Source: Chloroflexota bacterium
Lineage (GTDB): Bacteria > Chloroflexota > Anaerolineae > Epilineales > SHYO01
Reading direction: 5' to 3'
Assembly: GCA_009692745.1 (NCBI GenBank)
Contig: SHYO01000001.1
Location: forward strand, 1-63,745
Length of the DNA: 63,745 nucleotides
In this document: one piece after another, positions 14,026 through 48,245 of the stretch
How positions within the stretch are numbered: the stretch's first letter is position 1
Layout: each line of letters begins with the position of its first letter
Notes under the pieces: model-generated
Databases searched by the model: none
Told to the model about the DNA's origin: nothing
What the model saw: only the letters and a program-made list of their open reading frames with translations
Made by a program: the position numbers and the translations under genes

Positions 14026-14862
14026 ATGGTGCGCAAACTGCAAGAAAGTAAAGTAGCTTATGCAGAGAGGCTGGGTCAGGTAGCAGCCCTGGCAGCTGAG
14101 TGCGCCGGCGACCTGGCGCTCTTTCTCTTTGGTTCCTACGCCACCGGGCAGACTACACCCCTGAGTGACCTCGATTTGGCGTATCTGCCTCTGAACAGCC
14201 TGTCTCAGCGGGAGATGCATGATCTGGATGTCAGCCTCTACCTGCGTTTAAGTCACATTCTGGCAAGCGACGATTTTAGCCTCATCAATCTACGCGAGGC
14301 GCCTGCCACTATAGCCTTCGCAGTGTTGACCCAGGGCAGATTGTTGGCGCCATCGGACCATCCGGCTTTGCAGGCATTTCGTGAGCGTATCTTCGCTCTC
14401 TACCCGGAAAGCCGCCGTCTGAAACAAGCTTGTCTACAGGTGGTTAACCATGAAAAAATTCTGGAGCAGCTTCACCGTCTAGATCTGGACTTGCACAAGC
14501 TGGAAAGTAAAATGCAGCTTACGGAAACCGCTTACCTGGCCGATAGCGATAGCCAGGATATCGTCGAGTGCCGTTTACAGACCGCCTGTGAAGCCTGCCT
14601 GAATATCGGCCACCATCTCATAGCCGCTCTGGGGCTGCAGCCGGCCGAGGAATATGCGACCATATTTCAGAGCCTGACGGCAGGCAGCATCCTGTCGCCG
14701 GCGGTAGCCGAGTCTATGGCCGATATGGCCCGCTTCCGCAACCTGCTGGTGCATCTATACTGGCGTATTGATGCGCGCCAGGTCTACCAATCCCTGCCGC
14801 AGCGCGTGGCCATATTGCGCGCTTTCACCGAAGAGATCATAACATACCTGGGATTGCTTTAA
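14026..14862 (+). CDS. Fused minimal nucleotidyltransferase (MNT) - HepT/DUF86 (HEPN) protein
   Basis: N-terminal GSYATGQTTPLSDLDLAYL (GS...DxD NTase motif). C-terminal FRNLLVHLYWRID carries the HEPN R-x4-H motif of DUF86. Confidence 0.75.
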   Translation: MVRKLQESKVAYAERLGQVAALAAECAGDLALFLFGSYATGQTTPLSDLDLAYLPLNSLSQREMHDLDVSLYLRLSHILASDDFSLINLREAPATIAFAVLTQGRLLAPSDHPALQAFRERIFALYPESRRLKQACLQVVNHEKILEQLHRLDLDLHKLESKMQLTETAYLADSDSQDIVECRLQTACEACLNIGHHLIAALGLQPAEEYATIFQSLTAGSILSPAVAESMADMARFRNLLVHLYWRIDARQVYQSLPQRVAILRAFTEEIITYLGLL

Positions 14863-15201: not shown

Positions 15202-18200
15202 ATGATCCCCTCATCCGGTAAATCGAAGTTGTTTTCTCAAGTCGCTGATTCCGTATCTGCCACCCGGAAGATTTTGGGCCAGTGGAAGCCGCATCTACCA
15301 TCGCGTCGCACGATGTCAAAGATGCTATTTTTGGCTTCCCTGGCTCTGCTTGTTTTAGTGGGGCAGGCGCAGCCCGCTACCCAGGTTCATGCTCAAACAA
15401 ATTTATTCCAAATAATCTGGAGTGCTGACCCTCCGGTTTTTGCAACGGCCGGAAAACCGATCCTGGTCCGGGTGCAGGTCCAGGGTTTCCAAGCTAGCAA
15501 GCATTTTGATACTGCCAAGATTTTTACCGGCAGCGGTGGTCTCCCCTCTGCGTTGGGCACAGGGCCAGGCTTCTCTATTCCAGTCGGTAATTGTACGCCG
15601 GACCTGCCAAACAATGCAGAGACCTGTTCGAATTTCACCATTGAGACAAACGATCAATTTGGTTTCTATATTCTCTATAATATCCCTCCCGGTTGGGTGG
15701 GAGGCACGGATTTATCCCGAGATCTGAACACCTTTTTCCAGGCCCGCGGCGACTTAGCGATAGATTCGAACTATGCCGTGAACGTGGGCGCTTCGGCCGA
15801 CGTGGCCATCACCAAAATCGGCGCCCAACAGGCCCGCGCCGGGCAGCCCTTTACCTACAAGCTCGTGGTAGATAACTATGGCCCGTCGAATGCCCGTAAT
15901 GTGACCATCGAAGATGATATTCTCTCTTCACAGAATGTGACCTTGAATTCGGCGCCGGGTTGTACTGTGACCGGGGCTGGCGCGCAGCGCCATCTAAGCT
16001 GCGCACTAGGCACCATGACACCGAACGAGCGCATTACTATCGATGTGAGCGTGACCTCCAATGTTGATGCCATCATCAACAACACGGCTCAGGTTACGAC
16101 TACTGATCCCGATCCGGTGACCTTCAACAACAGCGCCCAGACGTTCACCGTCGTTTCCGCCGTGGCCGATTTGGCCGTGACCAAGACCAAGCAGAGCCCG
16201 GCCGGCAACCTCACCGCCGGCGGCAATGTCACCTATCGGCTTAGGGTCGACAACAATGGCCCTTCCTCCGCCGAAGGCGTGATCCTGGTAGATACGCTGC
16301 CGGCTTTTGCGCGGAACGTGACCTTCGGCGCCATCAGCGGCGGCGCCGGGTCTTGTATACCGGGCAACACGCCGATTACCCCGGCTACCTGTAACCTGGG
16401 TACCATCGCCAACGCTGGCTTCCGCCAGGTTGACGTCACCTTCCAGGTCGATCCCAGTATTCCCATCGACCCGGCCACCGGCGCTACCCTGTCCAACCAG
16501 GCGCAGGTCTTGAGTAATACTTTCGATCCCGATAACAGCAATAATTCTGACCAAGTCACGACCACCGTGGTGGGCTCTTCCGCCCTGTCGATGACCAAGA
16601 CCAGCGTGCCGGCAACGGTACACGCCGGTGACCTGTTCCACTACGATATCGTGATCAGAAACGCTGGGCCGTCCACGGCTTTTGACACCATCTTCCACGA
16701 TACCATACCCACGACGACCTTCCTGGTACTGAACGTCAGCCTGGCTTCGCCGCCTTTCTCGCCCTTCCCCAGTTGTACCATCGGGGTGGGCAACGGCCAG
16801 ATCGATTGTACCATCGGCGCCCTGGCGCCGGGCGCCACGGTCACCGGGACGATTAACCTGGTGGCCGCGGCCAGCGCCATCCCCGGTACGTACACCAACA
16901 ATGTCTTAGTCACCAGCCGCTCCGGTAGTGCGGTAGCTACTGCCCAAACCACGATCGACCGGCAAGCCGACCTGGAGATTACCAAGTTAGACGTACCCGA
17001 CCCGGCTACCGCCGGCTCGCGCATCGCCTATGCCATCACCGTCATCAACCGCGGTCCCTCCGATGCTCCGAGTGTCACCGTGGCGGATACGTTGCCGGCC
17101 GGCTTCACCTTTGCCGGCAGCACCGAGAACTGTACGGCCGGCGCCCCGGGCTTCAACTGTAACCTGGGCACCATCCCGGCCAACGGCTCGAGGAATTTCC
17201 TGGTCAACGTAGATATCGCCAGCAGTGTGGCGCCGGGTAATTTTACGAATTCCGTCACCACTGCCAGCAGTGCGCCCGAACCGAACCCTGATCCGCACTC
17301 CAACACCGCCACCCAGATCACCACAGTCCTGGGCAGCGCCGAACTGACCATGACCAAGTTGGCCAATCCGGTTGCGACCATCGTGGCGGGCACGAACTTC
17401 ACCTATACCTTGGTGGTCGATAACTTCGGTCCTTCCGACGCGCGCACCGTTACCGTAACTGATCTTCTGCCGCCGGAAGTGACTTTTGTCTCGGCCACAT
17501 CGACCTCCACGCCCGCCTTTATTTGTCCCCCCCCGGCTGGCAATAACCTGACCTGCACCCTCGCCACCCTGGCGGCTAACGGGCGGGCTACCATCGAGGT
17601 CGTGGTCAAGGCGAACCAGAACATTGCCTCGCCTTTCAACCCGATCCGCAACTGCGCCGAAGTGAACGCGGTGACCCCCGATCCCAACCGGGCAAATAAC
17701 CAGGCCTGCGCCTTCGTCACGCCGGCCAGCTTTGCCGACCTGGCGGTCTTCAAGAGCCATACGCCCGAGCCTGTGACGGCCGGCCAGAATATCACCTATA
17801 CCATCCGCGTCACCAATACCGGCCCCAGCGACGCCCACGGCGTGCTGGTGCAGGATATCCTGCCCGCCGGTGTGACCATCGATACCAAGCCGATTTTCTG
17901 CACCACCGAAGTAGTCTGTAACCTGGGCGATATTGCCGTGGGCCAGACGAAGGTCTTAACCATCTCGGTAGCGGCCAGCCAGTTCCTGCCCGCCGGCACC
18001 AAGCTACATAACGTGGCGCGGACCTTCAGCTCCAGCTTTGACCCGAACAACACCAACGATATCTATAACGATGTCGCCAACGTGATTACTACCGCTAACC
18101 TGTCGGCGCGGAAGATCGCCATCCAGCGTAATCAGTTTACTGAGACGATCTGCGGCACGCCCACGGGTTGTACAGTCAATGACATATTTGTCGCTGGCCA

Positions 18201-21200
18201 GACTGTCGAATACCAGATTCTGTTGCGCAACAACGGCCCCTCAGTGGCCCACAACGTCCTGATCAGCGATGTCTTACCGATCAGCACCACGATCGTCAGC
18301 GCCGCTGTGAAGAACCGTTCCGGCTTCTGCCAATTCCAGGCCGGTGGCAACCAGGTGCATTGTAACCTGGGCGATGTGGCGGCGAACCCGGCGCCGGACC
18401 AGGAGATTATCGTCAGCATCAATGTCTTGATCTCGCCTGCCGCGCCCCAGGGTTCCGTCTTGACCAACCGGGCCCGCATCAGCAGCGATACCGGCAATGG
18501 GCCCATCATCCTGCCCGCGCCGCCGAACTTCGATGGCAAATCTGGCGCCGACAGTGTCCTGGCGCCTGATAGCGTGACCTTCTCCTTCCTGGATTTGATC
18601 CTGTCGCTCTTTGTCCAGGCGCAGGCTGACCTGCTCATCATCAAGGCCGATACCGGCGTGCCTGCGACGGCCGGATCCTTCACTACCTACCAATTGTTGG
18701 TGATCAACGCCGGGCCGTCCGATGCCCAGAACGTGGTTATCAACGATACGCTGCCGGTCGGCTTTACCTATGTAGACAGCCCCAGCGACTGTACCGCTAC
18801 CGCGGGAGGCTTCACCTGTAACCTGGGCACCCTTGCCGCGGGCGGCAGCCAGGTTGTGGCTGTAACCGTGAAACTGGATCCCAACGTGGCTGCTGGCAAT
18901 CACACCAACACCGCCACAGTCACCAGCAGCACCAACGATCCCAATGCGGCCAATAATACCGCTACCCAGGTCACCGCGGTGCTAGAAGTGGCCGATCTCT
19001 TCGTGCGCAAGTTTGGCCGCCCGGACCAGATCGTGGTAGCCGGCACGCTGATGACCTACACCATCTATGTGGATAACGTGGGCCCGTCGGACGCCCGCAA
19101 TACCGTAGTCACCGATACGCTTGATCCCGATGTGACCTTCGTCAGCTCCACCCCTGCGCCGAGTACGGTCGGACCCACCGATCCGCTCAACGGGGAAATA
19201 AATTACATCTACAACCTGGGCACTGTGGCTTTCAATACGCGGGCGCAGATCCAGGTGGTCGTGCGGGTGAACCGCAGCGTGGGACCGCCTTTTGACCCGA
19301 TAACCAACCGGGTTGAAGTGCGCAGCACGGCGCAAGATCCCAACCTGGCCAACAACTTTACCGAACGCGTCAACGCCGTGACGGCCCAATCGGATCTATC
19401 GATCAGCAAGACGGCCGAGGGCCAGAACGTACAGAATTCTGGTACCGCACCTGCGCCCATCGCCTTGCAGGCCAACAGCGTAACCGCCGGTACCAACATC
19501 ACCTACACCATCCGCATCACCAACAGCGGTCCGACCGACGCTTACAACGTCTTCATCCAGGACTTTGTACCTCCTGGCGTAGACACGCGCGCGGTCTCCA
19601 TCACGCGCGGTGATGGCCTGCCGGGTACCTGCCAATTTGGCGGCCTGGTGGATGGCAGTGTGCGCTGCAATATCGATACGCTACCTTTCACCACAACCGC
19701 CGGCCTGAACACCGCTACGATGGTGATTAACGGCTTTGTTGCCAGCTCGGTACCCGAAGGCTTCCTGCTCAATAACAACGCCCAGGTATTCAGCGATAAC
19801 CTGGATCCCAACAATTCCAACAACCTTGCCCAGAATCAGACCGTGGTCAACGCCCGCGCTGACCTGGTGATTACCAAGACGGACGATCCTGACCCGGTAA
19901 TTGCCGGCAACATCCTGAAGTACACTATTACCGTGACCAACTCCGGCCCGTCCGATGCGCTCAACGTCGTCGTGACCGACACCCTGCCGGTGGACGGCAA
20001 CGGTGTGGCCCAGGTAGTCTTCGGCAATAGCTCCTTGAAGAATACCTTCGGTGGGGAGCTATGCTCCGCCGATTTCATCCATCCCGAGCGCGTTACCTGT
20101 AACGTCGGTACGCTGACGGCCGGCCAGGTGGTTACTTTCGACATCCTGGTGCTGGTCAAGCCGAATGTGGTGCTGGATGGCGAGACTTTCCACAACATTA
20201 CCAACACGGCTGCCGTCAAGAGTAGCACCATTGATCCGGTGTCCAGCAACAATACTACCACCCAGACCACGAGGGTCGAGGCCCGCGCCGAGCTGACCAT
20301 CCAGAAGGTGGATTCGCCAGATCCAAACGCGGCCGGGTTGCGCGAGACCTACTTGATTAACTTCTCCAACACCGGGCCGTCCACCGCGCGCACCGTAGTG
20401 GTGACCGATACTTTGCCGTTGGGTGTCTTCTACTCCTATTGTTCTCCTGTCGATCCGAACGATATCGTTTCCTGCTCGGTAATTAGCGGCAACGGTGTAA
20501 CGGTACCCCAGGTGGTTCAACTGAACTCCATCAAGCGGGCCAACGTAACGCTCTACCAGAAACCGCCCGCTGGAGAGGAAGACGACCTGGATCCGGGTGA
20601 GAGCTACTCCTTCTTCCTGATTGCCGATGTTTCCCCCGGCTACGTGCTCGACGGTCGTGGCATCACCGATCCCGGTAATTTGTGCCAGGCTGCCTCTGTG
20701 GCTGCCGGCGGCTATCCGCACATCGCCGATAACCGGGCTACTATCACTTCGGAGACGCCGGATCCGCAACCGCTGAATAACTACGATGACGAGTGTACCC
20801 AGATCATCGGTTCCGCCGACCTGTCCATTACCAAGACCGACAGCACCGGGGACTTCCCGCATGGTGACCCATTGGCCCCTGGTGGCACGATTACGTATAC
20901 CATTGTGGTCATCAATAACGGCCCTTCCGATGCTGCCGATGTGCGGGTGCAAGACCAACTGCCCCAGGGTCTGATCCTGAATCCTGCCCTGGTCGTCGTT
21001 ACCGTCAGCAGCCCGCTGATTGATGCACCCACTGCACCCATCATCACCAAGCGTGACGACGGATTGATCACGGTGCTCCTGGGTCGCGTCAACACGTCTT
21101 CGACGATTACCCGTACGAATCCGACTACCGGGGGTGGCGCCACCGGTCCGGGTGGTCCAATTACGATCACCATCGTTACCCGCGTAGCGCTAACCACGCC

Positions 21201-23523
21201 GGCCGGCATACTTACCAACGTGGCTTTGGTAGATACGGTAAAGGATCTGCGTTTCCCCAACCGTACCCGGCCGACGGCTGATCCGAATCTGAACAACAAC
21301 ATTGCCGTGGAAACCACTACCATCCAGATACCGTCCATCAAGGTGAATAAGACCGTGTCGTTCAACGGTGTCTGCCCCGGCACGGACAATCCCGCCGTGT
21401 CTACGCCGAACCAGCCGGTGACTTTCTGCTACGAGATCACCAACACCGGCACCACCTTCTTGGATAATATCTTGGTGATTGACTCCTACAAGACGCGGCA
21501 AGGGACCATCAACTTCTTTGTGGACCTGATCACCTTTGGCGCCGATCCGGGATTGCCGGTTGCTCCTGGTGAGGTCGTCCGCCGCCAGGTGACCCTGCCG
21601 TCACCGTACTTCAGCGACTGCGGCACCAATGTCAACACGGTGTTTGTGATAGCTGATCCGGTGAACTCTGGTCGCACTCGCCTGGTCGATCTGCCTCAAG
21701 TTTTCAATGCTGATGTAGCTACGATCAACGTGCCTTGCGAAGGGGTAGATTACCGGTTGCAGGTACCCATCCTGGACAACAGCACCTGCCAGAGCTGGGT
21801 CACCGTGCAGAACTATGGTAACAAACCCACCAAGGCCATGATGGTCATCTGGGGCCAGCCGGGCTATTGTACACCGCAGTCCACCGGTCCTTTGAAGGTG
21901 GAATGCACCGGCTTGCTGCTCCCCGGTAGTTCCTGGGTCTTTGCCCCCAGCCTGCTGCCGGCCGGGTCCCATAGTGCGGTGGTTTACTCGCTGAACGCTA
22001 CTGACCTGATTCCTTCGGTGAACGGCACCCTGCTGCCCTTCTCCGACGTAGCCTGCCGCGCGCTGTACCAGTATGTGGTCTTCAATGACGATCAATGGTT
22101 TGAGTTTGACTACTCGTACCGCCACCAGGGCATCTACCGTGGTCCTATCGGCAACGCCGGGCAGCAATTGCTGCTGGACTTCGGCGCGCACCAGGGGCAG
22201 CCGATTGCGGTTGAAGTTAACCGCACCTGCCCTGGCGATGTGACCCCGGGCTTCAAGGCCAGCGCCGCCTACACCGGCATCTCGTCGGATATGGAAGGCG
22301 CGCCCGACTTGACCTTCGGTGGTTTCGCCTACTACGTGCCCTTGATCTACACCCAGGGGCAGGGCGGCTACAATACCACCCTCTGGATCCAGAACTCCGG
22401 CGACCAATGCACCTCCGTCGAGATCTACTTCCAGAAGCAGGACAACTGTTTGCACCCGACGATCGGCGAGATCCTGAGCCTGTCGCCGGGGGAGACCATC
22501 GGCTTCGACCCGGCTACGGTGTTGCCGGCGAACCCGCCCTGGCAGGGCAGCGCCTGGATTCGGGCTTCCAAGCCCTTGGGTATCGTGGTAGATGTCCGTG
22601 GTAAGAATATGTTTGGCTCGTATGTGGGTGTGCCGGCCCAGTTGCAGTCGACCTTCAATTCCACGCCGGAGTTTAGCTTCGGTACCGCGGTGAACTACGC
22701 CCCCTTGATCTACCGCGAGTTCAACGGCTGGCAGACGGGCATCCAGGTACAGAACCTGAGCTCGATCACCAACGCCAAGGTCAAGGTCTACTTCGTCGAC
22801 CACACCGGTGGCATCATTACCACAGTCGTCGACTGGATCTGCCCACGCGGCTCGCAGACGTTCTTCTTGCCGGTGATCAACGGGTTGCCGGGGAACTATG
22901 TCGGTGCGGCGCGCATTGAGTCTCAGAACTGGTGGACTCCTGGCGATCCGAGTGTAAAAGCTCCTAATGTGTTGTCAATAGTGAACGTGATTAAGTATGC
23001 CGACCAGAACAGCACCACCACCCCGCTGGAGATGGCGATGTACAACGCCCTACCGGAGTGGAAGAGCTTCGACTGGCAGGTTGGTACTCCTCCCGGTCTG
23101 TTGGGGATGGGCTTGTTAGGTGTGCCGTTGGTGACGAAGGGCGGGCTGAACCAGGTCTACAGCGAGCTGGCGATCCAGAACCTGAACCCGAACCCTGGCT
23201 TCACCGACTTTGCGATCTTCTTCTACGACCAGAACGGGTTACTCGACACGGTCTGCGAGAAGCTGAACGAGAAGCAGGTGGAGTACATCGACCTGTCCTC
23301 GTGGGGCTTCGTGCCCAACGGCTTCAACGGTTCGGTGGTGATCTCGGCCACGCGCACCACGCAGCCTGGTGGCTTCGGCCTGGCGGGGGTGGCGGTCGAG
23401 CGGGTAGGGCGGAGTTTGACCCAACCGCAGCTCCAGGGGGATGAGACCAAGGCGTATGAGATGTTCCCGATCTTCTTCCCCTTCACCTTCCCGGTGACGC
23501 CGACGTGTCCGGGACAACCGTAA
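15202..23523 (+). CDS. Giant secreted DUF11-repeat surface protein A (2773 aa) with shared four-repeat C-terminal region
   Basis: AAAGGAGG 8 nt before the ATG. Hydrophobic signal segment MLFLASLALLVLVG after a 40-aa basic leader. About 13 DUF11/TIGR01451 repeats (ADLxxTK...NxGPSxA...DxLP) and a C-terminal 730 aa homologous to giant B. Confidence 0.9.
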   Translation: MIPSSGKSKLFSQVADSVSATRKILGQWKPHLPSRRTMSKMLFLASLALLVLVGQAQPATQVHAQTNLFQIIWSADPPVFATAGKPILVRVQVQGFQASKHFDTAKIFTGSGGLPSALGTGPGFSIPVGNCTPDLPNNAETCSNFTIETNDQFGFYILYNIPPGWVGGTDLSRDLNTFFQARGDLAIDSNYAVNVGASADVAITKIGAQQARAGQPFTYKLVVDNYGPSNARNVTIEDDILSSQNVTLNSAPGCTVTGAGAQRHLSCALGTMTPNERITIDVSVTSNVDAIINNTAQVTTTDPDPVTFNNSAQTFTVVSAVADLAVTKTKQSPAGNLTAGGNVTYRLRVDNNGPSSAEGVILVDTLPAFARNVTFGAISGGAGSCIPGNTPITPATCNLGTIANAGFRQVDVTFQVDPSIPIDPATGATLSNQAQVLSNTFDPDNSNNSDQVTTTVVGSSALSMTKTSVPATVHAGDLFHYDIVIRNAGPSTAFDTIFHDTIPTTTFLVLNVSLASPPFSPFPSCTIGVGNGQIDCTIGALAPGATVTGTINLVAAASAIPGTYTNNVLVTSRSGSAVATAQTTIDRQADLEITKLDVPDPATAGSRIAYAITVINRGPSDAPSVTVADTLPAGFTFAGSTENCTAGAPGFNCNLGTIPANGSRNFLVNVDIASSVAPGNFTNSVTTASSAPEPNPDPHSNTATQITTVLGSAELTMTKLANPVATIVAGTNFTYTLVVDNFGPSDARTVTVTDLLPPEVTFVSATSTSTPAFICPPPAGNNLTCTLATLAANGRATIEVVVKANQNIASPFNPIRNCAEVNAVTPDPNRANNQACAFVTPASFADLAVFKSHTPEPVTAGQNITYTIRVTNTGPSDAHGVLVQDILPAGVTIDTKPIFCTTEVVCNLGDIAVGQTKVLTISVAASQFLPAGTKLHNVARTFSSSFDPNNTNDIYNDVANVITTANLSARKIAIQRNQFTETICGTPTGCTVNDIFVAGQTVEYQILLRNNGPSVAHNVLISDVLPISTTIVSAAVKNRSGFCQFQAGGNQVHCNLGDVAANPAPDQEIIVSINVLISPAAPQGSVLTNRARISSDTGNGPIILPAPPNFDGKSGADSVLAPDSVTFSFLDLILSLFVQAQADLLIIKADTGVPATAGSFTTYQLLVINAGPSDAQNVVINDTLPVGFTYVDSPSDCTATAGGFTCNLGTLAAGGSQVVAVTVKLDPNVAAGNHTNTATVTSSTNDPNAANNTATQVTAVLEVADLFVRKFGRPDQIVVAGTLMTYTIYVDNVGPSDARNTVVTDTLDPDVTFVSSTPAPSTVGPTDPLNGEINYIYNLGTVAFNTRAQIQVVVRVNRSVGPPFDPITNRVEVRSTAQDPNLANNFTERVNAVTAQSDLSISKTAEGQNVQNSGTAPAPIALQANSVTAGTNITYTIRITNSGPTDAYNVFIQDFVPPGVDTRAVSITRGDGLPGTCQFGGLVDGSVRCNIDTLPFTTTAGLNTATMVINGFVASSVPEGFLLNNNAQVFSDNLDPNNSNNLAQNQTVVNARADLVITKTDDPDPVIAGNILKYTITVTNSGPSDALNVVVTDTLPVDGNGVAQVVFGNSSLKNTFGGELCSADFIHPERVTCNVGTLTAGQVVTFDILVLVKPNVVLDGETFHNITNTAAVKSSTIDPVSSNNTTTQTTRVEARAELTIQKVDSPDPNAAGLRETYLINFSNTGPSTARTVVVTDTLPLGVFYSYCSPVDPNDIVSCSVISGNGVTVPQVVQLNSIKRANVTLYQKPPAGEEDDLDPGESYSFFLIADVSPGYVLDGRGITDPGNLCQAASVAAGGYPHIADNRATITSETPDPQPLNNYDDECTQIIGSADLSITKTDSTGDFPHGDPLAPGGTITYTIVVINNGPSDAADVRVQDQLPQGLILNPALVVVTVSSPLIDAPTAPIITKRDDGLITVLLGRVNTSSTITRTNPTTGGGATGPGGPITITIVTRVALTTPAGILTNVALVDTVKDLRFPNRTRPTADPNLNNNIAVETTTIQIPSIKVNKTVSFNGVCPGTDNPAVSTPNQPVTFCYEITNTGTTFLDNILVIDSYKTRQGTINFFVDLITFGADPGLPVAPGEVVRRQVTLPSPYFSDCGTNVNTVFVIADPVNSGRTRLVDLPQVFNADVATINVPCEGVDYRLQVPILDNSTCQSWVTVQNYGNKPTKAMMVIWGQPGYCTPQSTGPLKVECTGLLLPGSSWVFAPSLLPAGSHSAVVYSLNATDLIPSVNGTLLPFSDVACRALYQYVVFNDDQWFEFDYSYRHQGIYRGPIGNAGQQLLLDFGAHQGQPIAVEVNRTCPGDVTPGFKASAAYTGISSDMEGAPDLTFGGFAYYVPLIYTQGQGGYNTTLWIQNSGDQCTSVEIYFQKQDNCLHPTIGEILSLSPGETIGFDPATVLPANPPWQGSAWIRASKPLGIVVDVRGKNMFGSYVGVPAQLQSTFNSTPEFSFGTAVNYAPLIYREFNGWQTGIQVQNLSSITNAKVKVYFVDHTGGIITTVVDWICPRGSQTFFLPVINGLPGNYVGAARIESQNWWTPGDPSVKAPNVLSIVNVIKYADQNSTTTPLEMAMYNALPEWKSFDWQVGTPPGLLGMGLLGVPLVTKGGLNQVYSELAIQNLNPNPGFTDFAIFFYDQNGLLDTVCEKLNEKQVEYIDLSSWGFVPNGFNGSVVISATRTTQPGGFGLAGVAVERVGRSLTQPQLQGDETKAYEMFPIFFPFTFPVTPTCPGQP
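22222..23523 (+). repeat. 1.3-kb dispersed direct repeat, copy 1 (3' end of giant gene A)
   Basis: Collinear without indels with 42810-44111. Sampled 60-nt blocks show roughly 90-98 percent identity, against about 70 percent immediately upstream. Confidence 0.85.
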
Positions 23524-24229: not shown

Positions 24230-25798
24230 TTACGGCGCTTTTCCCTGCCCGCTCAGCGTCCCGACGGCTTTCTCCAGCGCGGCGAGCCGCGCCTCCAGGC
24301 TCTGGTGCTCCTTTTGCAGCGCCTGGATTTGCTCTTGCTGGGCGGAGACCTGCACCTGCAGCGCCGAGATCTGCTGCTCTTTCTCTTGCACCAACGTGTA
24401 TAACGCCTGGCTGGCGGCCAGGGCCACCCCATCGCCATCTACCGTGCTGATATGGGTATTATCCTCGCCTACGCCGAAGGCCGCGTAGAAATCCTGGGCT
24501 ACGGGGCCGATGTGGCGGATATCCGCACTCTGGCTCTTGTAATTCCAGGTCGACATCGGCATTGCCGCCAGCCGCGCCAGGATCTCCCGCCCGTTCACGG
24601 GGGCGAAATTAGCTTTGAGCGCCTGATCCGAGGCGTTGGTCCAGGTGCCGCCCCGGCTCAGGTAGGCCCCGCTGGAGGTGGCTATCAATACGTTAGCCGG
24701 GATGGAGGGCGTGAAGGGGCCGGGACCGGTAGCCGCGCCTAGCCAGAGGCCGCCGTTGGCCCGCACGATAAACTGGTCGCTGCCGCCGGAATGGATCTCG
24801 GCATTGGTCGAGTCCGCCCAGATGAAGCTGCCCTGGTGGTCCGCTTTGGCCTGCCGGCCGGCGGCCAGGCTGTAATCTCCGGTCGCGGCATTTTCCCGTC
24901 CTCCGGGCACGGTGGCTCTCACACCGGCGGCGCTGTTGGAGATACCGCCGCCGATGGCGGCGTCTTCACCGTGCGCTACATTGGCAATGCCGCCGCCGAT
25001 GGCCGACAGCGTGCCGCTGGCCTGGTTATTCAACCCGCCGCTGATGGTAGATGATTCGCCGCTGGCCGCATTGCCTTGCCCTCCTCCCACAGTAGTATAA
25101 GTGCCGCTGGCGGTGTTGCTGGCGCCGCCGCTAATGGTGGCGTCCTGGCCCCCGGCGAAATTGCTCTCTCCGCCGCCGACGGTGGCGCGGGCGTTGCCGG
25201 CGCCATTGCCCGATCCGCCGCCCACGGTAGCCTGGGCGCCGTTGGCGCTGTTGCCCACCCCGCCGCCGATGGTAGCGCGCGAGCCGCCTGCCACGTTCAA
25301 CAATCCCCCGCCGATGGTGGCAAAATCTGCCGTCACCTGGTTGATGGCCCCCTGCTGCCCGCCCCCGCCGATGGAGGCGCCGATAGTGTTGGCCGCTACG
25401 CTGTTGCCGCTGAAGCCGCCGATCAGATTGGGCGCACTGGTGCTGTTGGTGGGCTCCAGCCGCAGGCCGCGCCGGCCGTTGACCCGCAGCTCCAGGGCCA
25501 GGTTGTCCGTCGTGCCCAGGAAATTCGTAATCGGATTGGTAGCGCCGTTCCCGCTCAGGCTCCAGCCGTCAATAGGACTTACGTAGGCGCCGGTTTGATG
25601 CCAGTGGCTGGTGACCAACTGCAGATCCTGCACGTCGATGCTGCCGTCCCGGTTCACATCGCAATTCTGATCGTAGGCGCCTGCGGGGACGCAACCGGCG
25701 CCGGCCGGGGCAGCCGGGGTCGCTGCGATAGCCGCCCCCCCTGAAGTTAACAAACACACCAGGCAAAGCGCAATTCCAATAATGATCGCCCTTTTCAT
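24230..25798 (-). CDS. Secreted tail-fibre-like trimeric fibre protein: dockerin-like loop, GGxxNxAxG beta-helix repeats, S74 intramolecular chaperone domain, coiled coil
   Basis: Signal peptide MKRAIIIGIALCLVCLL. DVNRDGSIDVQDLQLV. About 12 repeats of ATVGGGxxNxAxG. SDQALK (Ser-x4-Lys) followed by HIGPVAQDFYAAF, typical of Peptidase_S74. C-terminal heptad-rich QQISALQVQVSAQQEQIQALQKE. Confidence 0.8.
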   Translation of the reverse strand: MKRAIIIGIALCLVCLLTSGGAAIAATPAAPAGAGCVPAGAYDQNCDVNRDGSIDVQDLQLVTSHWHQTGAYVSPIDGWSLSGNGATNPITNFLGTTDNLALELRVNGRRGLRLEPTNSTSAPNLIGGFSGNSVAANTIGASIGGGGQQGAINQVTADFATIGGGLLNVAGGSRATIGGGVGNSANGAQATVGGGSGNGAGNARATVGGGESNFAGGQDATISGGASNTASGTYTTVGGGQGNAASGESSTISGGLNNQASGTLSAIGGGIANVAHGEDAAIGGGISNSAAGVRATVPGGRENAATGDYSLAAGRQAKADHQGSFIWADSTNAEIHSGGSDQFIVRANGGLWLGAATGPGPFTPSIPANVLIATSSGAYLSRGGTWTNASDQALKANFAPVNGREILARLAAMPMSTWNYKSQSADIRHIGPVAQDFYAAFGVGEDNTHISTVDGDGVALAASQALYTLVQEKEQQISALQVQVSAQQEQIQALQKEHQSLEARLAALEKAVGTLSGQGKAP

Positions 25799-25845
25799 TG
25801 GTTTTCCCTCTCTAGATATATCATACAAGGCAGATGGCCGGATAG

Positions 25846-25873
25846 GTAGGGGCGTACGGCCGTACGCCCCTAC
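25846..25873. promoter_or_regulatory. Perfect 28-bp palindrome upstream of the tail-fibre-like gene
   Basis: gtaggggcgtacgg|ccgtacgcccctac, 48-75 nt upstream of ATG 25798. Confidence 0.5.
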
Positions 25874-25982
25874 GGATGGTACATCGGTCATGACAGACTA
25901 CCATTGAGTGCTGGTGCAGGGGCCAGGTGTCCTCGCTTATCAATTTCTTAGCTGAGATTATCTCTCACTTATGCCTATCAGC

Positions 25983-26122: not shown

Positions 26123-27550
26123 TTACTGGGTGGGCCTGATTACCTCGCGGTACGCCTTGCGGAAACGGTCAAAGGCCAGCTTCCACTGCCCCTGGTTGTA
26201 GTGTTGTTGGGCGGCGGCGAATTCGGCTTCGGCGTTGTTCACCGGTTGGTTGGCCTGCAATTTCATCATATCGATGCTCGAGCGCACCGTGTCGCGCACC
26301 ACTTCCAGCAGGCCGCAACCTGGCGCCAGGGCGTCGCTGTTCGGGTTGCTATAGCCGGTGATGCAGACGGAACTGGGCAGCGCGAACAGCCCGACCGGGG
26401 AATCTGTCGGCGAGGCCAGGTTGGCTTCGATGTGGCCGCGCAGGTTCAGGTTGCGGAAGTTGAACAGGTTCGTATCGATATTGTTCGCCCGCACGGTGAG
26501 CAGGTCACCCAGGTCCATCAGGTCGGCGTGGATGATGCCGGTATTTTTGTAGGTAGCCTCCAGCTCGGCGTAGTTGATTTTCTTGTCACACCCCTGGTAA
26601 ATGCCTATGACTGCGTCTGCCGCCGCCGATACGGCTTTAGCGATGGTGTGGACCAAGCAGGCCGGCGCATTTGTGCCGCCGCCGACGATGGCGCAGGGCA
26701 CATACAGCAGAAGGCACAGGGAATCGGTCACATCGGTGGTGGTCTGGGCGATATTCTTCGCGATCAGCCCGGCCAATCCGACTCCGGCGGGGGTGCGCTC
26801 GTGGCCAAAGCGGCAGGTGACGCCCAGGCCGCTGTAATCCGGATTGGGGATCAGATCCACATCTTTGAGGTCCCCGGCGGCGTTGTTCTTCTCTTCCGCA
26901 TCCTTCAAGCTATCGTGGAGGATGGGCGCGGGGTTCGGTGTGGCGGTAGGTACCACATTGAAGTAATCCGGCTCTACCTTCGACTTGCCCGCTCGCGTAG
27001 CGAGACGCAACGCCTCTGCGGCCTGCAGCATATCTGGCCCGGGGGCCACCGTCTCCAGTTGGCCCGCTTTTTTAGCCTGCTCCTGGTAGGTCTTCAACAG
27101 GTGTACATTGTTTTTGAAGGTGGTGAAATTCGGGAAGGCGTGGTATAGGGCGTACACTTCCTCGGGGCTCAGGGAGAGGATGTTTTTTTGAGTTTGCAGA
27201 TACATATCATGGGAGAAACCGCCCCGCAGCAGGTTGCTGGTGGTCAAATCGTTGAGCAGTTCATCCAGGGTCTTGACCACAGCCAGAATCTCTTTGCGGT
27301 TGTTCTCCACGGCCTTGAGATCGGCTGCGGTGGGAGGCGCTATGCCCGGGGGATACACCATCCCGGGTGTGGGAGTGACCGCAGGGTCTTTAGCAGGGCC
27401 CACACCTGGCGTGGGGGTGCCGGTGACGGCAGCGGCGGCTAGAGCGCCCGGTGCGTTGCCGGTCGATGGGGCCCCCAGGCCCATAACTATAAAGGGCGCC
27501 ACCAGGAGCATCAAAGCTACCATAAAGACGGAGTTAAATTTGTTTAGCAT
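26123..27550 (-). CDS. Secreted Cys-rich protein of unknown family, paralog P1
   Basis: AGGAGG 8-9 nt before ATG 27550, signal peptide MLNKFNSVFMVALMLLVAPFIV and a Pro-rich linker. Shares the blocks PDYFxVVPT, ANNIDTNxFNFRNLxLR..IEANLAS, GCGLLEVVRDTV and GQWKLAxxRFRKAYRE with P2. Confidence 0.75.
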   Translation of the reverse strand: MLNKFNSVFMVALMLLVAPFIVMGLGAPSTGNAPGALAAAAVTGTPTPGVGPAKDPAVTPTPGMVYPPGIAPPTAADLKAVENNRKEILAVVKTLDELLNDLTTSNLLRGGFSHDMYLQTQKNILSLSPEEVYALYHAFPNFTTFKNNVHLLKTYQEQAKKAGQLETVAPGPDMLQAAEALRLATRAGKSKVEPDYFNVVPTATPNPAPILHDSLKDAEEKNNAAGDLKDVDLIPNPDYSGLGVTCRFGHERTPAGVGLAGLIAKNIAQTTTDVTDSLCLLLYVPCAIVGGGTNAPACLVHTIAKAVSAAADAVIGIYQGCDKKINYAELEATYKNTGIIHADLMDLGDLLTVRANNIDTNLFNFRNLNLRGHIEANLASPTDSPVGLFALPSSVCITGYSNPNSDALAPGCGLLEVVRDTVRSSIDMMKLQANQPVNNAEAEFAAAQQHYNQGQWKLAFDRFRKAYREVIRPTQ

Positions 27551-27631
27551 TCCGATTGTCCTCCTACGAATGCTCCATGTCGAGTGCTGGCGACGCTGAT
27601 CGTGAACCAAAACCCCTGGGTCCCCCGGTGG

Positions 27632-28966
27632 TTATTGAGCACGAACCGCCTCGCGGTAGGCTTTGCGGAACCGGGCGTAAGCCAGCTTCCACTGCCCTTT
27701 ATTGTACAGGTCCAACGCGGCCTGGTATTCGGTGCGCGCGTTGAATACATTCTGGTTGGCGCTTAGGCTCATCATATCAATGGTGCTTTGCACGGTGTCT
27801 CTGACCACCTCCAGCAGGCCGCAGCCGGCGGAAACGCCCTGATCGGTGGGGCTATAACCGGCGCCGTAGAGACAAATTGTGCCGGGCAAGCTGTAGAGCG
27901 CCATCGGATCGTCTTCATCGGAAGCCAGGTTCGCTTCGATACTAAGCCGCAGGTCCAGGTTGCGGAAGTTGAAAATGTTGGTGTCGATATTGTTGGCGCG
28001 GGAGATAAAGGCGCTGTTATAGTCGATCATGTCCGAATGGATAATCTTGGTATTGTCCAGGTTGGCCCTGATCCATGCTTCCGCGGTGAGATCCTGGCAA
28101 AGGATGAACCCGGCGGCCGTGGCCTTGAGTGCGTCGGCCGCGCCGTCCACAACGGCTTTGATGGGGCAAGTGATTATGCTGACATCGATGGTCCCGGGGA
28201 CCGGGCAGACAATGGCTTTGAGCTTGCATCCCAGTCCCAATCCGATAGAGACCAGAGAGAGGACGCCGGCCGCGATGCCAATGTCGTCGGGGATGCTCCA
28301 GTTATACAGGCGGGTGGGGCAGCCAATGCTGGTGGCATAGTCCGGCAGTTGTTCTTTGGACCCGCCGTTGATCTTGATGTCTCCGGCCTGGATGTTTTGC
28401 GCCTTGGCGTTCTGGTGGTCAATACCGGCGGTGGGCGGCACCGGCGTGGGCACGATGGTGAAATAGTCCGGCGATGGGCCGCCGCTGCGCGCCTGGGGCG
28501 AATCCTGCTGGGATTTTTCCGCCTGCGCCAGAATCTCCTGCAAGGCGGCGTTGCCATCGCGGAAAGCCTGGAACGCGGTGTGGTCCAGGTGGTGCACCAT
28601 GTTCGTCAGTTCCTCGGTGGTCATGTATTTAACGGTATACCGGTAATCCTCGGCGGCCGAAGGCTGGCCGCCCGCGGCGGTTATGGCCGCCGGCCCCAGC
28701 AGCTCTTGCACCGCAATGGCATTGTCGATCAGGTCCAGCATAAGGTGGCGCATTTCCTCCGGCGTTTGGGGATCGCCAGGAGCATTGGGCGCGAAGAGAG
28801 ATTGCGGATAGAGGCCGGGATTTATGGCCTGGGCTACTGATTGGCTGAATCCCAGAGTGGGGGCCAGCGTCCCGTTCCCATTGGGTGCGGCATAGTTTGC
28901 CGGCCCATTGGCGGCTATTGGTATTAGCAGCAATAGAGCCGAGAGGATGATTCCCAGCTTGCCCAT
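27632..28966 (-). CDS. Secreted Cys-rich protein of unknown family, paralog P2
   Basis: AGGAGG before ATG 28966, signal peptide MGKLGIILSALLLLIPIAA, 8 Cys, and the same conserved C-terminal blocks as P1. An 81-nt gap to P1 suggests an operon. Confidence 0.75.
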   Translation of the reverse strand: MGKLGIILSALLLLIPIAANGPANYAAPNGNGTLAPTLGFSQSVAQAINPGLYPQSLFAPNAPGDPQTPEEMRHLMLDLIDNAIAVQELLGPAAITAAGGQPSAAEDYRYTVKYMTTEELTNMVHHLDHTAFQAFRDGNAALQEILAQAEKSQQDSPQARSGGPSPDYFTIVPTPVPPTAGIDHQNAKAQNIQAGDIKINGGSKEQLPDYATSIGCPTRLYNWSIPDDIGIAAGVLSLVSIGLGLGCKLKAIVCPVPGTIDVSIITCPIKAVVDGAADALKATAAGFILCQDLTAEAWIRANLDNTKIIHSDMIDYNSAFISRANNIDTNIFNFRNLDLRLSIEANLASDEDDPMALYSLPGTICLYGAGYSPTDQGVSAGCGLLEVVRDTVQSTIDMMSLSANQNVFNARTEYQAALDLYNKGQWKLAYARFRKAYREAVRAQ

Positions 28967-29691: not shown

Positions 29692-32600
29692 ATGATGTTC
29701 CTGCAGCGATCTGTAAAGCATGGTAAGCAACCCAGGCATAAGCTCACGGGTTTGGTTCCGGCTGGAGCCGCGGCCCTGGCCCGGCTCGCCGTCCTGGCCC
29801 TCTTGCTGACTCTCGGCCTGGCGCCGGTGAGCGCCGCGCCCGCTGGCCCCGATTTTCCTACCGGCCCGCTGGCAAATATTGCTACAACAACGACATTTTC
29901 TACACCATCGCCCGCCAGCCCTGCAACTAATTGTCAGCCTGTTTCTTTTCTCGTATCCGTTACCCGCAATGATACAACTGGAGCGGTGATTTCGGGGACC
30001 GTCTCCTTTACGGATAATTCCACCGCCATCAGCGGTTGTCAAAATTTGGCGCTAAACGGATCTGGCCAGGCGACCTGTAACGTTAGCGCATTGACAATCA
30101 GTGGATCACCGCATACGATTGCTGCCAATTATTCGGGCGCTCCTGCCGGCCCGGATACGTTGCAAGCATCCTCCAATAGCATAAATTATACAGTGAATAA
30201 GGCCACCACCACGATCACGGTGGTGGGCGCGCCCAACGCCTCGACCTACACGCAGAAGGTCACCTTCACCGCCACGGTCACCTCGGCCTGCGGCAATGTC
30301 ACGGGGGTGGTGTTCTTCAACGACAACGGCACGACTATCGGCACGGGGGCGGTCAATCCCGCCACCGGCATCGCCACGTTGGATACTACCGAGCTGGATG
30401 CGGGCACCCATAAGATCACGGTGGTTTACGGCGGGGATGAGGACCACTCGGCCAGTGACAACTACGCCTCGCCCTATTCTCAGGTGGTGAATAAGGCCAC
30501 CACGACGGTGGCCGTGACCAGCTCGGCCAACCCGTCGGTGTGGGGGCAGCCGGTAACCTTCCAGGCCACGGTCAGCACCGGGGCCAGCGCCGTGCCTTCG
30601 GGGGCGGTGATCTTCAAGGCTGACGGGATTTACATCGGCCAGGCCAACCTGAACGGTTCGGCCCAGGCCAGCTTCACCACGGCGGCCCTGGAGGTGGCGA
30701 ACCATCCGATCACCGCGGAATACGAGGGGGATCTGAACTTCTCCGGCAACACCGGCAATCTTTCCGGTGGCCAGACGGTGAATAAGGCCGACACCACCAC
30801 CACCGTCACGAGCGACAAGACGCCCACGGTGTATGGCGAGCAGATCACCTTCTTCATCACGATCTCGCCGGTACCGCCGGGGGCGGGAGCGCCGGGGGGA
30901 AATGTGTTGATCAAGGTGGACGGCAACGACCTGGTGACGGTGCCGGTGGGATTAGTTGGTACCGGCAAGGCGCAATTCCAGACCTCGCCCTTGGGGCCGA
31001 TCCCGGCCAGCGCCTCCGACCACAATATCACCGCATTCTACCAGGGGGATAGCCACTTCAACACCAGCGATAACAGCGCTACGCCTTACAAACAGCATGT
31101 GAACAAGGCGAACACGGCGACGCAGGTCATCAACGGCCTGACCACCTCGACGGTGGGGCAGCCGGTGAGCATCCTGGCGCAGGTGACCCCGGTAGCGCCG
31201 GGGTTTGGTACGCCCTCGGGTATGGTGGAGTTCCGCGACAACGGTAACCTGGTGGCCACAGTCCCCTTGGTCAATGGGCAGGTGAGCCAGGACATCACCT
31301 TCAGCACACCGGGGACGCATGTGGTCAACGCGAGCTACCTGGGGGACGCTAACTTCAATACCAGCAACGCCAACCAGGCGCCAGACCAGACGGTGACCAA
31401 GGCGGACACCACTGCGACGCTGACCAGCAGCGGGAACCCGTCGTTTGTAGGACAATTGATTACCTTCACGGTACAGGTGACTATCTCCGGCTCCTCGGCG
31501 GTGGCGTTTGTGCCGGGGGGGACGGTGGCATTCAACGATAATGGGATTCCGATAACGGGGTGCGGCAGCGTGCCATTGGTGGGAGGCACGGCGCAGTGCG
31601 CCACCTCGACGCTGACGGCCGGAGCGCACCCGGTGAAAGTAGTATACGGCGGGGATGCCAACTTCAACGGGACGACCTCAAACCAGGTAACACAGAACGT
31701 GAACAAGGGGAACACCACCACGACGGTGAGCAGTGTGCCGCCGGGCTCGGCAGTGCTGGGAGCGCCGGTGACCTTCACAGCAGTGGTGGCGCCCAGCAGC
31801 GGGACCGGTGTCCCCAGTGGGAACGTGAAATTCCTGGATGGGGGATCACCCATCGCCGGGTGTACCGCCCAGCCGTTGGCGGCCGGGCTGGCCACCTGTG
31901 TCATCTCGACGCTGGGGGCGGGGAACCACGCGATCACGGCGCAGTACCTGGGGGATACAAGCTACAATACCAGCGTCTCCAATCCGCCCTACCAGTTTAG
32001 CATCACGGCGGCGGGCAGCGCCACGGCGCTGGTAGGGAGCGCGAATCCGACCACCTATGGCCAGACAGTCTACTTCACGGCCACGGTAACGACGGGCAGC
32101 GGCACCCCCACCGGGCTGGTGACGTTCAAGGATGGGGCTGCCACTGTGGGCAGCGGTATCCTTGACGGTACCGGCAATGCCTATTTCTCCACCAACGCTC
32201 TGACGGTCGGCTTACATCCGATTTCGGCGGTCTACGGGGGAGACAACAACTTCGCCGGCAGCACCTCGAATACCATCAACCAACAGGTGAACCAGGCGAG
32301 CACCACCACTACGATCGCCAACTCGCCCAGCACGTCGGTCTTCGGCCAGGCGGTGCTCTTGACCGCGACGGTGACGATCAACCCGCCGGGGCTGGGTACG
32401 CCTACGGGACCGGTGACATTTACCGTAGGGGCGACTGTACTGGGGGTGGTAAACCTGAACGCTTTCGGCAAAGCTTTCCTGACGACGAGCACGATCCCGG
32501 TGGGCTTGAACCAGACGGTGACGGCTAGCTTCGGGGGGACTGCTAACCTGGCGGCGAGTAACGGCACGACCCTGCAGACGGTGAACGCGGCCAGCACCAC

Positions 32601-48045: not shown

Positions 48046-48245
48046 GCGCCGTGCTTACCCCTTAGATTAATACCGGCCGCTGCCCGCTGCCGTTCTATAG
48101 TTGAAAGAAGTTTTAGATCATGTGGCATGAATCTGGAATACACAGAGGAACCCCAAATCCTAAGCGGCCCGCCAGGCAAATTCCTGCTTTCCCTCGAGGG
48201 AAGGCAGGGATACTCGTTCTGCTAAAATTTCTGAGGAAGGGGGGT

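Follow-up and report, generated by a model that had tools for sequence, protein, structure and literature searches.

A putative glycan-binding envelope-attachment module of four ASRAH-like domains at the C-terminus of two giant DUF11 proteins from an Anaerolineae-type Chloroflexota bacterium

How do giant secreted proteins that carry no recognizable anchor stay on the surface of a Chloroflexota cell? For the Anaerolineae-type lineages, which are dominant in activated sludge and in many sediments, we know of no general route described for surface-protein attachment. The envelopes of Chloroflexota are unusual and multilayered, and the make-up of their outer layers is uncharacterised (PMC13319060). 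The question is raised by a contig of the Chloroflexota bacterium SHYO01 (GenBank assembly GCA_009692745.1, contig SHYO01000001.1, positions 1 to 63,745; this whole stretch of 63,745 nucleotides is referred to below as the window), which encodes two giant DUF11 proteins, A and B, ending in closely similar regions. A first-pass annotation, made from the letters alone, had described this region as an unnamed, four-fold repeated β-rich module followed by a Cys-containing tail, and had proposed it as the domain for wall or sheath attachment or for polymerization. Our analysis suggests that the module is a compact tetrad of ASRAH-like domains which may act as the glycan-binding envelope-attachment module of Anaerolineae-type Chloroflexota, and we assign this reading a probability of roughly 50%.

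Both giants begin with a hydrophobic N-terminus resembling a cleavable Sec signal peptide and are secreted. The signal peptide is followed in giant A by a unique N-terminal region, 13 DUF11-type immunoglobulin-like (Ig) units, each matched by Pfam DUF11, and the four-repeat module, and in giant B by a dissimilar N-terminal region, 15 DUF11-type units interrupted by a CHRD domain, and again the module. The N-terminal heads thereby differ between the two proteins, while the C-terminal modules are 88% identical. Neither giant contains an LPXTG motif or a Pfam match to the SLH domain, and no C-terminal hydrophobic segment is found past residue 1129 in A or residue 52 in B; motif, Pfam and hydrophobicity results all agree with the earlier statement that LPXTG, SLH, PEP-CTERM and transmembrane anchors are lacking. 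It is this combination of variable heads, a repetitive stalk, a conserved and shared C-terminal module and no other anchor that leads us to read the module as the anchor. In these otherwise anchorless proteins it is the only plausible candidate for attachment; polymerization, offered by the first-pass annotation as the other option, is without direct support.

The part of each giant that is free of Pfam and NCBIfam matches is the final 588 amino acids (aa), and the module is defined here by this length (Table 1). No Pfam model matched it at E ≤ 10 in the window proteins or at E ≤ 1 in the 28 members of the family alignment, and the NCBIfam search was likewise empty, in keeping with its description as unnamed. 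The extent of ~730 aa claimed previously has to be reduced, as the first ~145 aa are an extra Ig-like unit, which lies within the reported region and outside the repeat module. The unit shares 62% identity with the corresponding unit of B and matches DUF7507 weakly (E 1e-3 to 1e-4; 9.6e-4 in A, which does not reach the Pfam cut-off). The start coordinate of 21320 was also one base off frame, the frame beginning at 21319 or 21322.

The four repeats of the module, R1 to R4, are real but strongly diverged. They were undetected by BLASTP self-comparison at E ≤ 100. When the 28-sequence family alignment was cut at the boundaries of the first-pass annotation and the sub-profiles were compared by hhalign, R2 and R3 matched with 89% probability (E 2e-6), and R1-R2, R2-R4 and R3-R4 with 23-35%; these four pairs are in register, and R1-R3 and R1-R4 gave short, out-of-register matches only. 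A hidden Markov model (HMM) of R2 matches R3 at E 0.001. Inter-repeat identity is 19-23% in an alignment of R2, R3 and R4 from 10 proteins, with three invariant columns: P7 (of 'xPL'), N25 (of 'QN') and G76 (before 'SA'). At their start the repeats have Y/x-x-P-L-(I/V)-(Y/x), and the pattern of strand 2 is (S/T)-x-h-x-(I/V)-Q-N. R3 is the best conserved repeat and carries AKVKVYFxD...DWICPRGSQTFFLP. All four repeat openings quoted in the first pass were found in both giants, and the four-fold division is borne out by hhalign, HMM, alignment and structural model; the uniform size of 130-150 aa was not upheld, the repeats measuring 188, 122, 140 and 138 aa.

Modules A and B align without gaps over 588 aa at 87.8% protein identity and 86% DNA identity, with a ratio of nonsynonymous to synonymous divergence (dN/dS) of 0.16; the module is therefore under purifying selection. 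The family HMM scores module B at 897 bits. The synonymous divergence between the two copies drops toward the 3' end (dS 1.1 in R1, 0.42 in R2, 0.35 in R3 and 0.20 in R4), and this gradient, together with the 62%-identical Ig unit upstream, could be the result of gene conversion homogenizing the 3' ends of both giant genes. Two long antisense open reading frames (ORFs), of 1176 and 400 aa, run over the module-coding DNA; similar ones occur in related loci, and codon and GC bias probably explains them as artefacts.

AlphaFold2, run on the 28-sequence alignment, produced a model with a mean predicted local distance difference test score (pLDDT) of 85 and a predicted template modelling score (pTM) of 0.88. 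An eight-strand series is repeated four times in the model, in R1 likewise apart from an insert of ~65 aa that bears two helices (module aa 95-122) and makes R1 longer than the other repeats. The pTM value points to a compact, packed four-domain body and not to beads on a string. The repeats directly follow the DUF11 array and, read by eye, share with it a general succession of a hydrophobic strand with N at its end and then a V-x-V-x-F-x-D strand, so they might be taken for four further, strongly diverged DUF11/CARDB-type Ig stalk units with no role of their own. This explanation was rejected and is very improbable, since hhalign comparison of R1-R4 with 12 DUF11 units of A and B gave probabilities of 0.1-4% and no Pfam Ig family matches the 28 members at E ≤ 1. 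The compactness of the predicted body speaks against it as well, as does the occurrence of the module as a fixed four-repeat unit that is also found on DUF11-free proteins and alone.

Foldseek comparison of the full model with the PDB returned Thermotoga maritima TM1070 (1nc7) with probability 1.0, E 5e-5 and a target TM-score of 0.66, at 19-20% identity over 113 columns; all other PDB matches have TM-scores below 0.25. For R3 modelled alone (pLDDT 70), TM1070 was again the sole convincing match (TM 0.58/0.68), with GOLD and CBM-type sandwiches trailing at TM below 0.45. TM1070 is an orthologue of ASRT, the sensory rhodopsin transducer of Anabaena. The ASRAH superfamily was defined from TM1070/ASRT-type proteins, and a near-invariant Asn that ends strand 2 was described as a signature of its fold (PMC2739507; De Souza, Iyer and Aravind 2009). 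In the module, N25, the Asn closing strand 2, shows no variation in any of the 30 aligned R2-R4 copies, and QN is also present in R1. This Asn aligns with the N of CIMN in TM1070 and the YxP of the repeats with GYIP, and TM1070 is matched both in the spacing YxP-(17-18 aa)-N and in the next strand (AKVKVYF vs AKIRITF). Pairwise BLASTP of TM1070 with R2, the repeat nearest to it in sequence, gave 24% identity over 107 aa at E 0.003, and the Smith-Waterman score lies at z=8 relative to 300 shuffles. Phmmer and hmmsearch with the whole module, a pooled repeat profile, R2 and R4 found no significant match among PDB sequences, and the Pfam model PF07100 (DUF1362) matched neither the window proteins nor the 28 members.

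A predicted body of four tandem, eight-stranded TM1070/ASRT-like sandwiches packed together is well supported by these models, and the repeats appear ASRAH-like on structure and architecture, with borderline support from sequence. The first-pass annotation had taken a match to an already defined domain as grounds for giving up its description; no sequence model matches, and the predicted fold is that of TM1070/ASRT and the ASRAH superfamily.

The architecture has precedents in this superfamily. Secreted ASRAH domains occur as dyads in actinobacteria and as tetrads in Chloroflexi, the latter always fused to an N-acetylmuramoyl-L-alanine amidase, and ASRAH domains are predicted to bind sugars or cell-surface glycans (PMC2739507). 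The Chloroflexi tetrads of Roseiflexus, Chloroflexus and Herpetosiphon (PMC2739507), which are compared with the module from their published description, resemble it as secreted Chloroflexota proteins with four TM1070-like eight-stranded sandwiches, the Asn that closes strand 2, a sequence likeness to ASRT that is only borderline, and predicted cell-surface glycan binding. The module differs from them in having no amidase partner, in belonging to another class (Anaerolineae-type metagenome-assembled genomes, MAGs), in its large paralogous expansion and many partner domains, and in the helical insert of R1 and a set of ten conserved Cys. The actinobacterial dyads are lipoproteins that, like the module, are extracellular multi-ASRAH proteins linked to an envelope glycan enzyme; they have a glycosyltransferase partner and a lipobox anchor (PMC2739507), whereas the module is a tetrad with a Wzy_C/TPR protein beside its stand-alone form. 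With TM1070/ASRT (PF07100, DUF1362; PDB 1nc7, 2ii7) the module shares the fold (Foldseek probability 1.0, TM 0.66-0.68), the spacing YxP(17-18 aa)N and, past the Asn turn, a strand AK(I/V)x(I/V)xF. The fourfold assembly is shared too, in the form of a homotetramer in TM1070 (PMC2739507) and of four fused domains in the module. Unlike the module, TM1070/ASRT are cytoplasmic single-domain proteins of ~125 aa without disulfides such as those proposed for the module, and their SHEshChhN motif, strand-1 Trp and Pfam match have no equivalent in it.

Of the ten conserved Cys, R1 holds Cys 11, 38, 50, 100 and 158. Co-loss was counted over 235 module copies, the counts being uncorrected for shared ancestry. 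C11 and C158, both within R1, are lost together in 19 copies, only the first in 11 and only the second in 1; the corresponding figures are 28, 8 and 1 for C38-C218, which joins R1 to R2, 4, 0 and 0 for C231-C362, which joins R2 to R3, and 3, 4 and 2 for the weaker pair C50-C100 within R1. C500 and the tail Cys are both present in 220 copies, both missing in 7 and discordant in 3 (Fisher p=5e-11). We infer five structural disulfides, two of which would staple neighbouring repeats, in line with a compact body, and one (C500-C584) would pin the tail to R4.

The tail FPFTFPVTPTCPGQP is identical in both giants, as stated in the first pass, where it had been set apart from the repeats. It aligns with the linkers after R2 and R3 (PEF-SF, FDW-QVG, FTF-PV) and so seems to be the last element of R4 and no separate appendage. 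Its Cys is kept in the internal copies of tandem or tripled modules and where 150-700 further residues follow. This retention and the covariation with C500 indicate a structural disulfide and not a site of processing or linkage, and the tail Cys is most likely a disulfide partner. A rival view, which goes with the first-pass question whether the Cys motif is processed, makes the tail a C-terminal signal for sorting or processing (by cleavage, lipidation or a covalent bond to the wall) that the repeats only present; it could draw on its identity in A and B, on the near-universal presence of its Cys in the family and on the fact that most members end ~10-40 residues past this Cys. It was rejected on Cys retention, covariation and linker alignment and has little credibility left, as the Cys is also not followed by a hydrophobic segment and the residues after it differ in length and composition.

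The 588-aa query retrieved 423 homologous proteins. Leaving aside fragmentary entries, each of the best 120 spans most of the query and the majority span its full length, at 44-77% identity. An exhaustive profile search of 1.84 billion representatives found 1466 clusters, counted at 50% identity, at E ≤ 1e-3 and 435 at E ≤ 1e-30. Across the family the module is one fixed unit that always has four repeats; a repeat of variable copy number was rejected. Its partner domains are all extracellular (S8 peptidase, proprotein-convertase P-domain, SdrD_B, CarboxypepD_reg, LTD, PPC, DUF11/DUF7507 and dockerin); an amidase is found neither among the precomputed Pfam domains of ~240 listed homologues nor in the scanned proteins. 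Many members consist of a signal peptide and the module alone (~600-650 aa). The C-terminal position implied by the two giants is not strict: the module ends the protein in about two-thirds of the representatives, 150-200 more residues follow in about one-third (P-domain, CarboxypepD_reg, dockerin or low-complexity sequence), and some representatives have an N-terminal module or two or three complete copies. In a set of divergent relatives (P0121-P0129, P0125, P0190), two or three modules are split by Pro-rich linkers and dockerin-like calcium-binding repeats (DxDGDGxVD).

The first-pass annotation had also suggested a search for the repeat in other Chloroflexota-like genomes. One-genome-per-species data yielded 206 loci, 77 of which were kept, and 76 of these belong to Anaerolineae-type Chloroflexota MAGs (Anaerolineales, Caldilineae, Ardenticatenales and Ca. 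Epilinea brevis). The remaining one (L074, CAVZRD010000004.1) is in a MAG labelled 'uncultured Gammaproteobacteria' and may reflect a binning or labelling error or horizontal transfer. Genomes carry at least 6-11 module genes, often as tandem pairs. Protein searches and a cluster look-up returned MAGs only and no cultured host, Litorilinea and Caldilinea included.

The stand-alone orthologues, which share 62-69% identity between separate assemblies with different lineage annotations, have a recurrent neighbour. In seven of the eight loci with enough flank (L037, L039, L058, L078, L079, L080 and one JGI contig; the exception is L081), the gene is followed on the same strand by one for a membrane protein of ~1000 aa with TPR repeats and a Wzy_C domain, which is of the O-antigen ligase/polymerase type. 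The seven loci come from seven different assemblies or samples. The two genes directly adjoin in five of them, and an inositol-1-phosphate synthase gene intervenes in two (L078, 12064-13395, and the JGI 3300075153 contig); the intervening enzyme may point to an inositol-containing envelope glycan or lipid. The linkage to Wzy_C/TPR ties the module to an envelope glycan pathway.

In the reading we prefer, the module would be a lineage-specific shared unit of uncultured Anaerolineae-type Chloroflexota, a lectin-like module whose ligand is a conserved glycan in the envelope or outer layer of the same cell and which holds varied passenger domains on the surface non-covalently. The passengers in the window would be the DUF11 stalks with their variable N-terminal heads. 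The stand-alone form, made of signal peptide and module, would work with the neighbouring Wzy_C/TPR membrane protein, which would make or ligate the bound glycan. The closest analogy for glycan-binding envelope attachment is with Firmicutes, in which three SLH repeats or three CWB2 repeats bind a wall polymer non-covalently. In SLH and CWB2, tandem repeats in a fixed number fold together as a single pseudo-symmetric unit, and the unit is common to many surface proteins per genome and sits at either protein end; the module is like them in these respects. The fold is different (SLH is helical and CWB2 α/β), the sequences are unrelated and no Pfam model matches, and ligand binding is only inferred for the module.

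Several results weigh against the preferred reading. Hhalign comparison of the repeat profiles with 121 ASRT-family sequences gave matches that are in register and not significant (P 0.007-0.01), the ASRT-family HMM comparison reached 8.1 bits against 5.7 for shuffled controls, and the repeats have neither the conserved strand-1 Trp of ASRAH nor the SHEshChhN ligand motif. The passenger-bearing paralogues, A and B included, show no conserved glycan-related neighbour, and a search of 77 loci for conserved neighbours gave only other large surface proteins and antisense artefacts. Homologues come exclusively from MAGs, and the Wzy_C link fits a glycosylation substrate or a lattice subunit equally well.

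The last point leads to an explanation in which the module is a self-assembling lattice subunit of an S-layer or sheath, with an abundant stand-alone protein that is O-glycosylated by the adjacent Wzy_C-type enzyme and passenger paralogues that co-assemble with it. In Geobacillus and Paenibacillus, S-layer proteins are glycosylated by oligosaccharyltransferases of the Wzy_C family. The stand-alone forms are a conserved orthologue group consisting of signal peptide and module only, and their gene pair with Wzy_C/TPR is conserved. The idea is attractive because the filaments of Litorilinea (Caldilineae) carry a lattice-like protein layer of unassigned identity (PMC13319060). TM1070-type domains oligomerize (PMC2739507). 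Even so, we consider it unlikely, as the module was not seen in cultured species, Litorilinea included, and internal or tripled copies within one protein fit a subunit role poorly. S-layer proteins are usually far less conserved than the stand-alone orthologues, whose identity among differently annotated lineages would be high for such proteins. A broader scheme, in which the stand-alone protein and the Wzy_C/TPR protein build or decorate an outer or lattice-like protein layer and every module-bearing paralogue (proteases, DUF11 fibres, adhesins) plugs into it, would amount to the missing envelope-attachment system of filamentous Anaerolineae/Caldilineae-type Chloroflexota. It would then stand next to sortase/LPXTG, SLH and CWB2 as a fourth general way for monoderm-like bacteria to display surface proteins; the scheme is speculative and, on balance, doubtful.

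The polarity of the giants could also be the reverse, with the module as a distal adhesive head, a lectin for foreign glycans (of substrate, prey or floc neighbours) borne on the DUF11 stalk, and the N-terminus or a partner at the cell end. The relation of the fold to predicted sugar-binding domains (PMC2739507) is compatible with such a role, the polar 'grappling hook' filaments of Litorilinea are built from DUF11 giants (PMC13319060), and several of the source genomes are from activated sludge, where adhesion matters. However, the N-termini look like cleavable Sec signal peptides, so that the head would be left without an N-terminal anchor. The N-terminal regions vary and the module is conserved across paralogues and lineages, which is the reverse of diversifying adhesin heads, and the module is also present on proteases and alone. 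An adhesive head is thus quite improbable, and attachment to the cell's own envelope continues to be the reading we favour.

The fold class and the existence of secreted ASRAH tetrads in Chloroflexi have been known since 2009 (PMC2739507). What appears to be new is this particular family, including its size and its use as a module common to many surface proteins, together with the conserved Cys set and the link to Wzy_C; literature searches on ASRAH and on C-terminal domains of Anaerolineae surface proteins gave no prior description past the 2009 paper. The family is a concrete and testable attachment candidate for Anaerolineae-type Chloroflexota, a possible domain model would annotate hundreds of 'hypothetical' surface proteins, and the module could be used as a handle to find the envelope polymer that it binds. 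The ASRAH fold would be extended from a small-molecule sensor to a large extracellular tetrad stapled by disulfides.

Table 1. Positions in the window of the two giants, their modules and the genes around them.
Feature	Coordinates	Strand	Size or position	Basis or remark
Giant A	15202..23523	+	2773 aa	longest ORF; ORF list, translation, Pfam
Last Ig-like unit of giant A	21322..21756	+	~145 aa	weak DUF7507 match
Module A	21757..23520	+	588 aa	
Module A, R1	21757..22320	+	module aa 1-188	AlphaFold2 secondary structure, hhalign register with R2
Module A, R2	22321..22686	+	module aa 189-310	eight strands
Module A, R3	22687..23106	+	module aa 311-450	eight strands; alignment, AlphaFold2, Foldseek
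Module A, R4	23107..23520	+	module aa 451-588	tail included
Module A, C500	23254..23256	+		
Module A, tail	23476..23520	+		
Module A, C584	23506..23508	+		tail Cys
Antisense ORF over module A	21601..22803	-	400 aa	
Giant B	34497..44111	+	3204 aa	ORF list, translation, Pfam
CHRD domain of giant B	39000..39362		giant B aa 1502-1622	Pfam E 2e-24; mid DUF11 array; none in giant A
Module B	42345..44108	+	588 aa	
Module B, R1	42345..42908	+		
Module B, R2	42909..43274	+		
Module B, R3	43275..43694	+		
Module B, R4	43695..44108	+		
Antisense ORF over module B	40017..43547	-	1176 aa	
Nucleotidyltransferase/HepT-like ORF	14026..14862	+	278 aa	
Peptidase_S74 protein	24230..25891	-	553 aa	
ORF	26123..27610	-	495 aa	no Pfam match
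ORF	27632..28966	-	444 aa	no Pfam match
Big_3_5 protein	29692..34008	+	1438 aa	
Penicillin-binding protein, class A	48120..50921	+		
Alpha-2-macroglobulin	50943..57560	+	2205 aa	

The hydrophobic N-terminal stretch of giant A suggests that its true start is probably an internal Met at ~15313 (MSKMLFLASLALLVLVGQAQPATQVHAQ). Between the two giants, a protein with a Peptidase_S74 intramolecular-chaperone domain of the tail-fibre/endosialidase type is encoded, with the two ORFs that lack a Pfam match beside it. Directly upstream of giant B lies the gene for another large surface protein, the third in the window, which combines ten Big_3_5 domains with a single DUF11 unit; the four-repeat module is absent from it. 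Further along the contig, the class A penicillin-binding protein (transglycosylase and transpeptidase) and the bacterial alpha-2-macroglobulin, with MG, bait-region, TED and bMG10 domains, are the known PBP1C-A2M pair. The 278-aa ORF just upstream of giant A combines nucleotidyltransferase (Polbeta/MNT-like) and HepT-like RNase domains and looks like a fused toxin-antitoxin pair.

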